Source: Laspinema olomoucense D3d
Lineage (GTDB): Bacteria; Cyanobacteriota; Cyanobacteriia; Cyanobacteriales; Laspinemataceae
Reading direction: 5' to 3' (one strand)
DNA length: 64,000 nucleotides
Assembly: GCF_025370715.1 (NCBI RefSeq)
Contig: NZ_JAMXEY010000002.1
Both the position numbers and the translations under genes were made by a program. Positions 26,976-58,111 of the stretch are shown here, one piece after another. Under the pieces are notes generated by a model. That model was not told the DNA's origin. It saw only the letters and a program-made list of their open reading frames with translations, and searched no databases. The first letter of the stretch is position 1, and each line of letters starts with the position of its first letter.

Positions 26976-27235
26976 TGATGTTCCCTCACTCCATTCTCGC
27001 CCATCATTTCAGGGTTCCAATTAGTTTATCCCATTTAAGGGAGAATTAAACAGGCATTAGTACGCTTGATAACAGCCTGGAGTAAAACAGGGGAATAAAG
27101 CTACCCAAATTCCCAGGAATCGATGACATCAACCGGGCGATCGAGACGCAGATTTCAGAGTAAACACCCCACACCCTTGAGGGTGGGGGTGTGGGTCAAC
27201 CTCCGAAAATCCGATGGGTATCCGTCCTAATCGGG

Positions 27236-29260
27236 TTAATTCCAGTTCCCAATTAGAGTAAACGCCGACCAAAAATAAGGGTGAGATAGGTTCGGCGTTT
27301 TTTGTTCTACCAATTCCGGTGGGAGGGGGACGGTTTTGCCATTAGAGAGAACTAACATCCCATTTTCTAGGCGCACCTCTCCCCTTAACAGCGCCAGTTG
27401 GGTTTGCCGTAAAGCTTCGGCTTTCAGTGGTTTTTCCCCTAATTGGGAATAAAATTCACTCATTAATCCCAGAGTGCCTGCATCGCTAACATACCAGAAA
27501 CTGGCTAAGGATGCCTTAGCCCCAGAAAGCACCGCTAACCCCGCAAATCCTAACTCCGCCTCGGTATCTCCTACTGCCGTCCGACAAGCACTTAGGGTTA
27601 AGAGTTCAATGGGAGGATTTTGCGAGGTATTCCACCCGAGTTCCGTGGCTAACTCTCGAATTCGGTTGAGTCCGACTCGGCCATCGTAAAACGTGATATA
27701 AGAGTTATCCAAATTTCCCCCTTGAAATTCCGCATGAGTTGCCAAATGGATAATTCCAAATTGTTTTTCCTGGTTAATTTGTCGGAAATTAGCGGCAGTG
27801 AATTGTTCATTCAAAAAAACAATTCCCTTCCAGGGTTCGCTCACAATATTTTGCAACTCACTAGGTACCGCAGGCAGAGGATTGAGGTTTTCAAAAATAG
27901 CAGAACCCATCGCTAACACTTCTCGGTTGCGGATATCGGAATAGGTGACATCAGTTAAGCCAAAACTGGGGACTAAAGCAACGGCATATTTTTCTATTAA
28001 AAACTGTTCGCCATCATGTAATGCCGCCAGGGGAAGGGTTCTCAACCCAGAATCCATCGAAAAAACTAAGGTTTCAATCCCATTAGCTTTCAATTGTGCT
28101 TCCATTGGAGCAATCAAGGACTGATAGAGTTGTTGGGCGATCGGTAAGTAACTCTGACTGTTTATTCTTCTGGGATTAGTCAGTTCTGCTCGCAAGTTTT
28201 GCACCTGTGCAATCAGCTCTTCCCGAGAGATATTTGGCACGGTTTGGCGAACAGCTACCTCACTCGTTCTCTCAATCAGTCCTTGGGCTAAATCCGCCGA
28301 AGCCACTAAGTCTGAACTGCCCCCGGCTACTCTAAAATTCTGGGGGAAAATCATCACCAGTTCTAATTGCTCTGCTAAGGCTGAGACATAAATAAATGCA
28401 CTCTTATTGTCAGTTTCTTGCCACAAATCATACAATTTTTGGGCAATTTCATCGGGAGTCGCCGTTTCCCCCAATAACTCCACCGCTAGATAATTGCTAA
28501 ACTCCATTGCCTGAAATTCTTCCAACATTTGAACCGCCACCCCAACATCAGCAACGGCTAACTGAGTTTCATAACCCGGGCGATCGACTTCTTGGTCCGA
28601 TAGGGGAGTCATGGGTTGTGCCTCTTCCGTTGTGCTATCACCCCCTTCGAGAATCTGACCCTCTATCGGATTGGTACTTTCTGTGGTGGGGTCCGGTTCT
28701 GGATTATTCTCACCCACCGTTGGAGGAACTTCCTCCTCACGGGGAACCTGGGGATTCTCCGGGATGACAACCGGGGCGCTGGGTTCGGGCGCTTGAGTGT
28801 TAATTGGTTCAAGGGTTTGAATGGGAATCGGTGCTGGCACTTCCCCTGGGCTGTTAACAGGGATTACTGGGCTATCCCCAGGTGTTTCTGTGGGAGTCTC
28901 TGTGGGAGTTTCTGTGGGAGTTTCTGTGGGAGTTTCTGTGGGAGTCTCTGTGGGAGTTTCTGTGGGAGTTTCTGTGGGAGTTTCTGTGGGAGTTTCTGTG
29001 GGAGTTTCTGTGGGAGTTTCTAAAGGGAGTATATCTCCGCTTGGTATAATTGCAGGAGGCTCTTCCACTGGCGGTTCTTCCACAGGAGGCTCTTCTACAG
29101 GGGGTTCTTCTACAGGGGGTTCTTCTACAGGTAATACCGGCTCTGGAGTGAGGGGTCCTGTGATATCCGACTGGTTTGTCTGGGTGATGGCAGGATCAGC
29201 AGCGATCGCCACCAATGTCATAGCCAAAACTAATTTCATCCATCCCTTAAACAATTTCAT
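27236..29260 (-). CDS. Secreted CHAT-domain (caspase-like) protein with signal peptide and Pro/Glu/Thr repeat linkers
   Basis: 674 aa. Signal peptide MKLFKGWMKLVLAMTLVAIAA. Linkers (PVEEP)x5 and (TPTE)x12. C-terminal CHAT signature (HLATHAEF...LLTLSACRTAVG...). Confidence 0.8.
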   Translation of the reverse strand: MKLFKGWMKLVLAMTLVAIAADPAITQTNQSDITGPLTPEPVLPVEEPPVEEPPVEEPPVEEPPVEEPPAIIPSGDILPLETPTETPTETPTETPTETPTETPTETPTETPTETPTETPTETPTETPGDSPVIPVNSPGEVPAPIPIQTLEPINTQAPEPSAPVVIPENPQVPREEEVPPTVGENNPEPDPTTESTNPIEGQILEGGDSTTEEAQPMTPLSDQEVDRPGYETQLAVADVGVAVQMLEEFQAMEFSNYLAVELLGETATPDEIAQKLYDLWQETDNKSAFIYVSALAEQLELVMIFPQNFRVAGGSSDLVASADLAQGLIERTSEVAVRQTVPNISREELIAQVQNLRAELTNPRRINSQSYLPIAQQLYQSLIAPMEAQLKANGIETLVFSMDSGLRTLPLAALHDGEQFLIEKYAVALVPSFGLTDVTYSDIRNREVLAMGSAIFENLNPLPAVPSELQNIVSEPWKGIVFLNEQFTAANFRQINQEKQFGIIHLATHAEFQGGNLDNSYITFYDGRVGLNRIRELATELGWNTSQNPPIELLTLSACRTAVGDTEAELGFAGLAVLSGAKASLASFWYVSDAGTLGLMSEFYSQLGEKPLKAEALRQTQLALLRGEVRLENGMLVLSNGKTVPLPPELVEQKTPNLSHPYFWSAFTLIGNWN
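28885..29028. repeat. Tandem 12-nt repeats (tgggagtttctg / tgggagtctctg, about 12 copies) encoding (TPTE)n on the minus strand
   Basis: Directly visible periodicity. Produces artefactual plus-strand ORFs (CGSF)n. Confidence 0.85.
29055..29130. repeat. Tandem 15-nt repeats (ggttcttctacaggg-type, about 5 copies) encoding (PVEEP)n on the minus strand
   Basis: Directly visible periodicity adjacent to the 12-nt array. Confidence 0.75.
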
Positions 29261-29290
29261 TGTGAGAATCCTTCTCTAAATAAGCCTGTA

Positions 29291-30349
29291 CTACAACCGA
29301 TCAAATGTAAACCCATAACCAATCCCCAGAATAAACCGAGTGCCATCTCCAGCACTTCCGGTGATGTCCGTAATCGCGGGAGAAATCACCAAAGGAATAT
29401 TCCGAAACGGCACCAGGGAAACCCCCAAAGTGAGGTCCTGACCCGTCCATTCGGCGATCGCACTCACGGGAGGTGCAACCCTTACTGCCACTGAGCCAAA
29501 CAGCCCTACAGTCCCCTCTCCCGCCTGGATATCCGACTCAGAGCGGTATTGTCCACCCCCGACCCCCAGGGTCAGATACAATTGGCTCCAAAGGTTCTCG
29601 GGGTCATCCAAAACAAACCGTTTCGTCACCACGCCATACCCAGAGGTCCCGCCATCGGTTTCTCCCCAAGTGAGCGCTCCTTGTACCCCTGCCGCAATGC
29701 CAAAATCATTGGGCAATTGTCGGTGCAATTTTAAGCTGACACTGCCATCCTCGAAGGCATCACCCCATAAATCCGTTACCGTTATACCAACAGTTAAGCC
29801 AATATTTTCCCGAGGATTTCCAAACCCGATGCCGAATCCACCAACCCCATCGCTAGTATCCGTAAACCGAGTTCGTTCCTGTAAACCTAGTCCAAATCCC
29901 GCACTTCCCCAACCCGCACCATAACCGGAGGGAGTCATCACCGTAATCGCCGGAGAAGCCAAATAGGGTTTGCTTTGAGTGGTAAGATCCATGCGAGGAC
30001 GAAACGGGATGCGTTCGGGAATGAAGGGTTGTTCCCCCGGGGTCCCCCGATGTAAGGGAGTCCCTTGGCGGGGGGTCGTTCCCTCCGGTGTTGTGGAGGG
30101 TTCCCCTTGGGCGATCTCACCTTGGGGGTGAACCGTCCCCTCCCCGGCATCCGGTTTAGGAAAAAGGACCTCAGTGCGATCGCCCGGAAGGGGTTGGAAA
30201 AATAAAGGCTCCAGATTAGCAGCATTAGCAGCAAATTCCAGCTTTTCCCCGAACCCTTCTGCTTGCCAGGGTTCTACCTCGCCCGCTTGGGCGACATCAG
30301 GGGGGAATAAAATCCCGAGGAGCAGTAATTCAACGATCATACATTTCAT
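29291..30349 (-). CDS. Secreted Gly/Thr-rich putative outer-membrane beta-barrel protein with Pro-rich N-terminal linker
   Basis: 352 aa. Signal peptide MKCMIVELLLLGILFPPDVAQA. Alternating hydrophobic/Gly pattern typical of beta-strands. Family not recognised. Confidence 0.5.
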   Translation of the reverse strand: MKCMIVELLLLGILFPPDVAQAGEVEPWQAEGFGEKLEFAANAANLEPLFFQPLPGDRTEVLFPKPDAGEGTVHPQGEIAQGEPSTTPEGTTPRQGTPLHRGTPGEQPFIPERIPFRPRMDLTTQSKPYLASPAITVMTPSGYGAGWGSAGFGLGLQERTRFTDTSDGVGGFGIGFGNPRENIGLTVGITVTDLWGDAFEDGSVSLKLHRQLPNDFGIAAGVQGALTWGETDGGTSGYGVVTKRFVLDDPENLWSQLYLTLGVGGGQYRSESDIQAGEGTVGLFGSVAVRVAPPVSAIAEWTGQDLTLGVSLVPFRNIPLVISPAITDITGSAGDGTRFILGIGYGFTFDRL

Positions 30350-30679
30350 TAGTGGCGAGGCTAAACAATAAATACCCCTGGGAGGATTGTACCCTTTCTG
30401 CTCCGCAAAATCACATTTTCCTTTCCCCCCAGGGAGAACTATGACCTTTCAACTTTATCGATGGCAATCACTCTAGTCGAAAATACTTACCGCTGTTTTC
30501 TCACCTCAGTTTTAAGCGTAACAGCGATCGTAGCACTCCGCAGTCAAGCGATCGCCGTCATCCATTGGCGGTGTTTTATCACCTAAAGAACGGGCGATCC
30601 AAATCACCCCATCCTGGCAATCCTTGTTTATAGTAGAACTATCCTATTACCTATTCTCTCTGGAGAGAATATTTAAAAC

Positions 30680-57043: not shown

Positions 57044-58111
57044 TTAACGACACCGCGCTGTTTTGCCATCGGGTAAAATAGCGTCACAAATTGTCCCTTG
57101 GGTAAAATCTACATTCTCAATCCCAATCTGAGTGAGATCCGCCCCTCGCAGATTAGTGCCGGTGAGTTCGACATTGCGGAAGGTGGCACCCGTGAGGATT
57201 GCCCCCTCTAGGTCCGCACCCGAGAGAATCGTCCCCTCTAAGCTGGCTCCCTGAAGCTGGACATTTCTGAGCTGGGTATTAATCAAAATCGCTTCATTGA
57301 GAATAACCCCATGCATATCCGCATCTAATAAATCAGCACCGGAGAGGTCCGCCTGGGTTAACAAGGCCCCTCGTAAGTTACTGGTGCTGAGGTTAGCATT
57401 TCTGAGACTGGCTCCTTGCATCTGTGCCCCTTGCAGGAACGCTTGCCGCGCACTGGCTCCACTGAGATTGGCACTATTGAGGATGGCCCCACTGAGGTTG
57501 GCATTGTTGAGGGTCACCCCGAAGAGTTCGGCACCTGTGAGATTGCTCCCCTGGAGTTGAGCACCATTGAGGTTCGCTTGCTCAATGTAGATGCGGCTGA
57601 GATCTGTCCCGCTTAAATTGGCTTCGGACAAGTCTGCATTCGCTAGGTTAATTAAAAATAAAACTGCACCCACGAGCTGACTCTGAGATAAATTCGCCTC
57701 AGTGAGGTTGACTCCGGTTAGATTGGCCCCTCGAAGATTGACTTTGTGTAAGTTGGCCCCCGTGAAGTTGGCCCCAGTCAGATTGGCCCCTCTCAAATCG
57801 GACCCTTGGAAATTGGCATTCGTTAGGTTAGAACCGCTCAGATCGGCACCGGTGAGGTCGGTATTACTCAGGTTGGCATCGGTCAGAATACAGGCTTGGC
57901 ACTGATTGGTTTGCATCAAGCGCATCACCCCGGCAGAATCTTGCGATCGCCCCGGAATAGCTAGGCAAACCACAGCTAACACAATGATAAAAACTCCCAT
58001 CCATCGGTAAATTTGCCCTATTCGTAAACTCAATTTGTTGTTTTTGATGATTCGTGGATTTGCCATTCGTGGGGCCACCTCTGGAGTCCCGTAGAAAATC
58101 TTAATGCTCAC
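57044..58111 (-). CDS. Membrane-anchored pentapeptide-repeat protein
   Basis: 355 aa. N-terminal TM helix, then about 50 consecutive A(D/N)LSG-type pentapeptides (ANLSNTDLTGADLSGSNLTNANFQGSDLRGANLTGANF...). Confidence 0.85.
   Translation of the reverse strand: MSIKIFYGTPEVAPRMANPRIIKNNKLSLRIGQIYRWMGVFIIVLAVVCLAIPGRSQDSAGVMRLMQTNQCQACILTDANLSNTDLTGADLSGSNLTNANFQGSDLRGANLTGANFTGANLHKVNLRGANLTGVNLTEANLSQSQLVGAVLFLINLANADLSEANLSGTDLSRIYIEQANLNGAQLQGSNLTGAELFGVTLNNANLSGAILNSANLSGASARQAFLQGAQMQGASLRNANLSTSNLRGALLTQADLSGADLLDADMHGVILNEAILINTQLRNVQLQGASLEGTILSGADLEGAILTGATFRNVELTGTNLRGADLTQIGIENVDFTQGTICDAILPDGKTARCR

Follow-up and report, generated by a model that had tools for sequence, protein, structure and literature searches.

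A conserved cyanobacterial gene pair for a predicted 12-stranded outer-membrane barrel and an exported CHAT protease, and its possible role in export or display at the outer membrane

The question raised by this locus is why an exported caspase-like protease should be encoded directly beside a small outer-membrane protein, and what the two proteins might do together. The locus occupies positions 27,236 to 30,349 of a 64,000-nucleotide stretch of contig NZ_JAMXEY010000002.1 of Laspinema olomoucense D3d (assembly GCF_025370715.1), the whole of which is called the window here. It consists of a gene for a 352-aa protein predicted to form a 12-stranded β-barrel (gene 1) and a gene for a 674-aa protein ending in a CHAT domain (gene 2). 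A sequence-only reading had described a secreted CHAT protease with repetitive linkers and, downstream of it, a secreted barrel-like protein that might be its outer-membrane partner or anchor. Both genes read on the minus strand, which puts the barrel gene upstream (5′) of the CHAT gene and reverses the proposed order. The role of outer-membrane partner or anchor is strongly supported by synteny in 63 of 65 loci and by the co-occurrence of the barrel with a short motif of the CHAT protein, here called the handle.

Conservation of the pairing was examined by a barrel scan using one genome per species, which returned 267 relatives and from which the best 80 loci were kept. An ortholog of the CHAT protein was the next gene on the same strand in 63 of the 65 loci having at least 1.5 kb of downstream sequence, with a median gap of 30 nt; in the two exceptions (L042 and L047) the barrel gene stood alone, with no adjacent CHAT gene. 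Among the loci were those from Laspinema/Oscillatoria, Symploca, Microseira, Microcoleus, Calothrix, Nostoc, Anabaena and Dolichospermum, from many Pleurocapsales, and from Spirulina, Stenomitos, Halomicronema, Prochloron and Aphanothece. No other neighbour of the pair was conserved beyond a single order. The barrel and CHAT genes are thus a conserved two-gene, operon-like module across cyanobacterial orders. A COP23-family gene (Pfam PF14218) was found 50–600 nt upstream of the barrel gene in 35 loci, mostly of Pleurocapsales (for example L018, 2830-3345), and was considered as a third component; it was set aside because it is missing from the window and from other orders and accompanies lineage-specific synteny (UbiD), though it recurs in one further locus (L082). 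An ortholog search seeded from Nostocales returned entries named only ‘hypothetical protein’, from Calothrix, Tolypothrix, Aulosira, Anabaena cylindrica, PCC 7108 and Dolichospermum, and no match named PCC 7120, N. punctiforme or Synechocystis. In the literature on exported CHAT proteins, exoproteomes and CHAT proteins with two-partner secretion (TPS) domains, no description of the barrel/CHAT module was found.

The 674-aa protein matched the Pfam CHAT profile (PF12770) over residues 373–672 with E=9.2e-64 and 216 bits against a cut-off of 24, the match spanning profile positions 2–289 of 289. The signal peptides of both proteins were judged from sequence features (basic n-region, hydrophobic h-region and AxA-like site), a layout that recurs in all orthologs. 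For conservation, the window protein was aligned with 62 barrel-adjacent orthologs from genomes, giving a 63-sequence alignment in which His509 and Cys559 are at least 97% conserved; in a smaller 40-sequence alignment both are invariant. An AlphaFold2 (AF2) model built from the latter gave a predicted local distance difference test (pLDDT) score above 90 for residues 226–674, apart from a loop at 312–332, a signal-peptide helix at residues 2–20 and disorder for residues 21–219. In the model His509 follows a strand at 503–507 and Cys559 one at 553–557, placing the dyad at C-terminal strand ends as in CHAT peptidases. A Foldseek search of the PDB returned Csx29, the TPR-CHAT protein of Craspase (E=2.8e-14), separase (5e-09) and the periplasmic TPR-CHAT protein DdvA (7e-08), followed by weaker matches to a SAVED-CHAT protein (9e-07), gingipain (6e-04) and also caspase-4, so that the model has a caspase/separase-like fold. 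Sequence-profile searches of the PDB with the CHAT family and the barrel family gave nothing meaningful. Cys559 is the only cysteine of the 674-aa protein, which fits a thiol enzyme in an oxidising compartment. On these sequence and model features the protein is predicted to be an exported caspase-like protease with an intact, conserved dyad, and looks active and extracytoplasmic; the possibility that it might be a pseudo-protease, which the sequence-only reading had kept in view, finds no support at the dyad. A role in defence was also considered and rejected. The PADLOC ‘REase_II’ match to residues 79–156 is a low-complexity artefact of the TPTE repeat, no genuine PADLOC match to anti-phage CHAT systems (Craspase, CBASS SAVED-CHAT, gasdermin activators) was obtained, and the protein is exported and has housekeeping neighbours.

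The model of the 352-aa protein is a closed antiparallel barrel with an even number of strands (12), as predicted for an outer-membrane barrel and not for a soluble periplasmic protein. The figures listed in the structural comparison were 17.0 for FapF, 16.6 for a COG4313 channel, 16.5 for KdgM, 15.4 for NanC, 14.9 for NalP, 14.8 for Hbp, 14.2–13.7 for EstA, AIDA-I and LpxR, and 13.4 for intimin, and every one of these entries is a 12-stranded outer-membrane barrel. The family ends in an aromatic β-signal with the consensus ...GYxFSF, and 109 of the 150 family representatives analysed end in Phe; the terminus of the window protein, FTFDRL, is a β-signal with a 3-residue extension. At the other end a putative signal peptide has an n/h/c layout with AQA followed by G, common to relatives. 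Neither Pfam nor NCBIfam gave a match to the barrel, including Pfam at E up to 1 across 30 members, and the PDB held no sequence relative at E up to 10. Homologs numbered 984, the named ones being cyanobacterial or uncultured; each of the 120 listed carried the source name ‘hypothetical protein’, and none had a Pfam domain. The C-terminal 250 residues are 50–60% identical across orders.

A profile search of 1.84 billion representatives placed the barrel in a family of 1112 clusters at 50% identity, 583 of them at E up to 1e-30. In the best 150 representatives, which were analysed further, the barrel is C-terminal and preceded by N-terminal extensions of variable kind, in proteins of 232–843 aa, and in 14 of the 150 the extension carries SLH peptidoglycan-binding repeats. 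Because some members carry these repeats there, the N-terminal extension would lie in the periplasm. A Microcoleus-like locus (L081) joins the two arrangements, with an SLH-bearing barrel followed by an orthologous CHAT protein that has the handle. Charged and Gly-rich loop residues of the barrel are conserved family-wide (Q157, R161, D167, K207, H209, D232, R269, W301-G-Q-D-L, D328, A333-G-D-G and R338-F339). The conserved segment before the barrel holds a motif of narrower distribution, in which F109 is at least 90% conserved and P111 and P115 are invariant: F-x-P-x-R-[IV]-P was found in 77 of the 80 CHAT-type loci, the remaining three having close variants of it, but in only about 19–25 of the 150 family representatives. 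Since the core is conserved throughout the family and the tail motif is restricted to the CHAT-paired subfamily, partner specificity most likely resides in the periplasmic tail of the barrel, as judged from the alignments. Distant paralogs of the barrel with long low-complexity or SLH N-terminal extensions were found within polysaccharide-export clusters (L084, 5001-7274; L085, 3343-5616; L086, 5001-7532), next to Wzz/Wzc-like genes, a Wzm/Wzt ABC pair and glycosyltransferases in the first two and to a Wzz/Wzc-like gene and an SLH-Poly_export-SLBB protein in the third; the family may also supply an outer-membrane pore or anchor for cyanobacterial exopolysaccharide export. In L082 (160-4738) the gene order is COP23, Trypsin_2-TPR protease, SLH-barrel paralog, and this barrel beside an exported protease of another class hints at a more general barrel-plus-protease theme.

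On the side of the protease, the counterpart of the tail motif is the handle, which directly follows the signal peptide and has the consensus Q-[ST]-G-N-[QM]-S-D-[IV]-T-x-P-x-P-x-E. It is present in every barrel-adjacent ortholog; in the 63-sequence alignment conservation is at least 97% at Q27 and S31 and at least 90% at D32 and P36. It was found in barrel-paired CHAT proteins only. In five Nostocales orthologs (L017, L022, L053, L056 and L064) the handle is duplicated in tandem, for example as NQSD...PQEI and then xxSDVTGPDPQE, as expected if selection for avidity acts on a short binding peptide. When metagenome contigs were scanned reciprocally with the CHAT alignment as the seed, 80 loci were returned, and these fall into two classes. 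In the class ending in GNWN, to which the window protein belongs, the barrel was upstream in all eight handle-bearing loci with upstream sequence, one of the motifs being degenerate; the class ending in G[SN]PW, about 60 proteins, has neither handle nor barrel. One GNWN copy (L101, 2955..4832, plus strand) lacks the handle, the acidic spacer and the barrel together, and a globular region of about 170 aa replaces its handle. A second exported CHAT paralog (L077, 2404..3804, minus strand), without handle or acidic spacer, is likewise not barrel-adjacent.

The closest CHAT paralogs are 40–60% identical (best segment) to window residues of about 223–673. All five of the G[SN]PW-class paralogs scanned with Pfam had an N-terminal TPS secretion domain (PF05860) and a C-terminal CHAT domain. 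Such TPS-CHAT exoproteins, of 817–1904 aa, were seen in metagenome loci L096, L097, L104, L115, L130 and L161; in the last of these a TPS-domain open reading frame (ORF) lies just upstream of the CHAT ORF, with a ShlB/POTRA_2 TpsB gene beside both. These TPS domains would explain why some cyanobacterial CHAT proteins carry the old annotation ‘filamentous hemagglutinin outer membrane protein’. No paper on TPS-CHAT cargo was found. That the closest paralogs examined are two-partner-secretion cargo is the strongest argument for the window protein crossing, or being displayed at, the outer membrane.

Between handle and catalytic module lies the linker in which the sequence-only reading had seen a length-variable stalk, and the comparison across orthologs upheld that view as far as length is concerned: the linker ranges from 15 to 978 aa (median 121), against a catalytic module steady at 420–460 aa. 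Its pooled composition is 18% Glu, 14% Thr, 13% Pro and 9% Asp; acidic residues make up 26.5% and basic ones 2.5%, and Cys and Trp are absent. At least three perfect tandem peptide copies were present in 20 of the 63 aligned CHAT proteins, with a different unit in each. In the window the arrays are (PVEEP)5, just as first read, and a second array that had been given as (TPTE)12; that array exists, and its copy number is about 11.75 when read as ETPT, with 11 full units. The coordinates given earlier had each range assigned to the wrong unit size: Tandem Repeats Finder (TRF) placed the 12-nt unit (11.5 copies, 96% matches, score 262, the strongest tandem repeat of the 64-kb window) at 28884-29021 and the 15-nt unit (5.3 copies) at 29053-29131. 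Of the 11 full 12-nt units, nine share one sequence and the other two each depart from it at a single synonymous base, and the 15-nt units vary at synonymous sites, so the ETPT array looks recent and the PVEEP array older. Close relatives of the window protein differ in both unit and copy number, with (PEEPL)4, a TP run and about nine TPxE in L006; about six PVDPV-type units (five perfect) and about ten TPT[ED] in L001; a TPTD-type array of 12 and 10 perfect copies and no first array in L004 and L007, respectively; (TP)n in L008; (STTEPPL)n in L010; and (ATQEG)n with (GEGPPPDDF)n in L009. Because the unit lengths are multiples of 3 nt, slippage would alter linker length only and allow no on/off switching. 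Comparison of these sequences supports the view that the linker behaves as a fast-evolving, length-variable spacer shaped by slippage.

As a working mechanism, gene 1 would provide a 12-stranded outer-membrane barrel with its FxPxRIP-bearing tail turned toward the periplasm, and gene 2 a Sec-exported CHAT cysteine protease made up of a 15-aa handle, a disordered acidic P/T/E spacer and a 450-aa catalytic module. The barrel would be an outer-membrane partner dedicated to the protease. On its periplasmic side it would recognise the handle, and it would then either pass the acidic spacer and the protease through the outer membrane or keep the spacer in its pore; the protease would act at the cell surface, on a stalk whose length evolves freely, slippage in 12- and 15-nt units tuning that length and nothing else. 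A short motif and a small barrel would here replace a TPS domain and TpsB. We tentatively favour this account, in which recognition of the handle by the barrel leads to export of the protease or to its retention at the surface, as a two-gene miniature analogue of type V secretion, while holding it with less than even confidence; the physical interaction, transport direction, surface exposure and substrates are what we infer. A wider proposal is doubtful, though possible: that the pair represents an unrecognised class of two-component outer-membrane export or display, a ‘split inverse autotransporter’ or minimal type V-like pathway of cyanobacteria, in which a non-Omp85 12-strand barrel with a short recognition tail in the periplasm translocates and/or retains a separate enzyme by way of a 15-residue signal, with the acidic spacer through the pore.

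Several points weigh against export through the barrel. A 12-strand pore that has already folded is narrow, and we know of no 12-strand barrel that exports a separately encoded 450-aa globular domain. The element of the barrel that is specific to the subfamily is its tail, which would be periplasmic, and docking in the periplasm fits equally well. Given SLH-bearing barrels and distant paralogs in polysaccharide-export clusters, the barrel could be a generic outer-membrane anchor or pore. Both the handle and the barrel tail are disordered in AF2 models of each protein alone, and no barrel-CHAT fusion was found among the top 150 family representatives. The loci also share phylogeny, so counts of handle/barrel co-occurrence overstate their significance; the association, as seen in the sequences, is clean despite this non-independence.

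Among the other explanations, the chief one, a periplasmic tether, is possible, if somewhat doubtful. The barrel would then be an outer-membrane anchor only, its tail (with FxPxRIP, and SLH in some lineages) binding the handle and holding the protease on a flexible acidic leash at the inner face. Its substrates would be proteins that are periplasmic, associated with peptidoglycan or part of outer-membrane tethers, and self-cleavage of the linker might set the protease free. This agrees with the position of the CHAT-subfamily-specific element in the N-terminal tail of the barrel, with the SLH domains that place this tail in the periplasm in the Microcoleus-type ortholog (L081) and in paralogs, and with a linker of near-unconstrained length, as for a leash. 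A precedent is DdvA, also a structural match, which is a periplasmic TPR-CHAT protein on a flexible linker that it is proposed to cleave (PMC11506125). It agrees less well with the TPS domains of the closest CHAT paralogs scanned, which are built for outer-membrane export. Moreover, a dedicated 12-strand barrel is a costly anchor next to a lipid one. It also tells against a tether that soluble periplasmic proteins rarely have long acidic PT-rich repeat linkers, which are characteristic of extracellular proteins. The two genes might instead be co-transcribed with their products physically uncoupled, the barrel being a small channel or structural protein (for peptides, acidic oligosaccharides or outer-membrane integrity) that is merely co-regulated with the protease. 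Barrel-core residues are indeed conserved in paralogs with other neighbours, namely polysaccharide-export genes or a trypsin-like protease and COP23, and two loci (L042, L047) have the barrel without an adjacent CHAT gene; this explanation would nevertheless leave unaccounted for the handle and the barrel-tail motif, which occur only where the genes are paired, and the near-universal 30-nt spacing across orders, and we consider it unlikely.

It is less plausible again that the CHAT domain is here no processive protease and serves as a sensor, scaffold or single-turnover self-processing module, as CHAT and caspase-like domains in signalling often do. Csx29, separase and DdvA stay inactive until a trigger releases them, and the dyad is misaligned in the DdvA structure (PMC11506125). 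In the window family, by contrast, the dyad and its surrounding motifs are invariant across orders, and such purifying selection on His and Cys, read from the alignment, argues for catalysis and makes a non-processive role quite improbable. The least probable explanation, to which we give very little credence, is a contingency locus, phase- or antigen-variable, with repeat instability as its main biological point. The near-identical 12-nt units imply recent expansion and close relatives differ in unit and copy number, as such a locus would have it; however, 12- and 15-nt units preserve the frame and permit no on/off switch, many orthologs function with a non-repetitive linker of 15–50 aa, and the differences in repeats were seen between relatives, not as polymorphism within a species among near-identical strains.

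As structural kinds, CHAT proteases and 12-strand outer-membrane proteins are both known; the two-gene module looks undescribed. By analogy, its gene order corresponds to that of an inverse autotransporter divided between two genes, and its logic to that of TpsA/TpsB. The likeness to two-partner secretion (type Vb) lies in the CHAT module itself, which in the TpsA paralogs is 40–60% identical over about 450 aa, in the succession of signal peptide, N-terminal secretion determinant, spacer and CHAT domain, and in an outer-membrane barrel gene next to the cargo gene, both in L161 and in the window pair (63 of 65 loci). Unlike these paralogs, the window CHAT protein has a 15-aa motif in place of the TPS domain PF05860 (Pfam), and its barrel has 12 strands, no POTRA domain and no Omp85/ShlB Pfam match (30 members, E up to 1), with the barrel gene first and tightly spaced to the cargo gene. 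When the two genes are read as one, the part order is that of the inverse autotransporters (type Ve: intimin, invasin), with a signal peptide, a periplasmic (sometimes peptidoglycan-binding) N-terminal region, a 12-strand barrel, a linker and a C-terminal passenger. In contrast to autotransporters of types Va and Ve, barrel and passenger are here separate polypeptides with their own signal peptides and a stop codon between them; type Ve further differs in sharing no sequence similarity and in having Ig-like or lectin adhesin domains as passenger, not a CHAT protease. Type Va passengers are often proteases and, unlike that of the window pair, are covalently joined to the barrel. FapF, the secretion channel of Pseudomonas functional amyloid, is similar in its 12-strand barrel, its N-terminal periplasmic extension and its separately encoded secreted substrate adjacent to it; FapF substrates are unfolded amyloid subunits. 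Neither FapF nor the β-domains of autotransporter proteases (NalP, Hbp/SPATE, EstA) are related in sequence to the window barrel, and there are no fap genes nearby. DdvA, Csx29 (Craspase) and separase share the CHAT fold and the His/Cys dyad, but the window protein has no Pfam TPR match, transmembrane anchor, sigma-factor partner or CRISPR context. Cyanobacterial SLH outer-membrane proteins, which tether the outer membrane to peptidoglycan, resemble those members of the barrel family that have SLH before the barrel; the window barrel, however, is without SLH, has 12 strands and has no Pfam relative, OprB-type porin domain included.

The features of the locus are collected in table 1.

Table 1. 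Positions in the window of the two genes, their parts and the candidate signals around them.
Feature	Coordinates	Strand	Remarks
Gene 1, 352-aa outer-membrane protein (predicted 12-stranded β-barrel with N-terminal tail)	29291..30349	-	
Barrel signal peptide, about residues 1–22, MKCMIVELLLLGILFPPDVAQA followed by G	30284..30349	-	Sequence features; start common to close relatives; AF2 helix at residues 4–14
Variable acidic Pro-rich tail, residues 23–97	30059..30283	-	Unalignable between homologs; would be periplasmic
Conserved pre-barrel segment, residues 98–148	29906..30058	-	
Subfamily motif F109-x-P-x-R-I-P115	30002..30025	-	Within the pre-barrel segment
Predicted 12-stranded β-barrel domain, residues 149–348	29306..29905	-	
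Intergenic spacer, 30 nt	29261..29290	-	Shine-Dalgarno-like GAAGGA inside
Gene 2, 674-aa exported CHAT (clan CD, caspase-like) protease, predicted	27236..29260	-	
CHAT signal peptide, about residues 1–21	29198..29260	-	Sequence features; AF2 helix at residues 2–20; layout common to all orthologs
Mature N-terminal handle motif, residues 22–40, ...ITQTNQSDITGPLTPE	29141..29197	-	
Hypervariable acidic P/T/E linker, residues 41–225	28586..29140	-	AF2 pLDDT <50
(PVEEP)x5, residues 44–68	29057..29131	-	15-nt unit
(ETPT)x11.75 (x11 and ETP), residues 81–127	28880..29020	-	12-nt unit; DNA near-identical
Catalytic module, residues 226–674	27239..28585	-	Conserved
Pfam CHAT segment	27245..28144	-	
His509 codon	27734-27736	-	Codon checked
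Cys559 codon	27584-27586	-	Codon checked
Sigma-70-like promoter candidate, weak	30438..30467	-	Upstream of barrel gene; TTGCCA-18-CATAGT, 9/12 matches
Terminator-like hairpin candidate, weak	27167..27182	-	After CHAT stop; 5 pairs, T-poor tail

Promoter and terminator scans yielded weak candidates only. The region held two promoter-like sites where chance alone would give 4.3, so the site upstream of the barrel gene is a candidate only; terminator matches were mostly the repeat array itself, and a scan of the 30-nt spacer found no terminator between the two genes. The barrel and CHAT ORFs share a reading frame, with start codons 1089 nt apart and two in-frame stops between them, the barrel gene's own and one in the spacer. 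The shared frame is probably a coincidence, notable given the ‘split inverse autotransporter’ layout.

The surrounding genes (ureC, an HGLS-family gene and a major vault protein (MVP) homolog) are unrelated to the pair, and horizontal transfer of the locus was rejected, its GC content being without anomaly. The MVP homolog is full-length (882 aa; 30680..33328, plus strand) and divergent from the barrel gene, with Pfam matches to Vault repeats (E=2.6e-67), MVP_shoulder (2.3e-55), Vault_2, Vault_3 and Vault_4. Bacterial MVP homologs are uncommon. An 883-aa homolog holds the equivalent position in 7 of the 80 barrel loci (for example L001), and the adjacency is probably lineage synteny. Elsewhere in the window, imperfect 30-nt tandem repeats were found at 57454-57512 (TRF score 90) and 57707-57792 (score 75), within a 355-aa ORF at 57044..58111 on the minus strand.

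Protein export across the outer membrane of cyanobacteria is poorly understood. The barrel family is large, cyanobacteria-specific and without a Pfam model, and deserves one. If the barrel truly exports or anchors the protease, the pair would be a very small and genetically simple device for export or display, consisting of one barrel and a 15-aa tag; it would interest secretion biologists and perhaps also those who seek means of surface display for cyanobacterial biotechnology. We know of no proteases assigned to surface remodelling, filament breakage or cell–cell interactions in filamentous and baeocyte-forming cyanobacteria. If the tether explanation holds instead, the module would define an outer-membrane-tethered periplasmic CHAT protease; if the favoured account of export or surface retention is true, a caspase-like protease would be placed at the cell envelope of filamentous and baeocyte-forming cyanobacteria.

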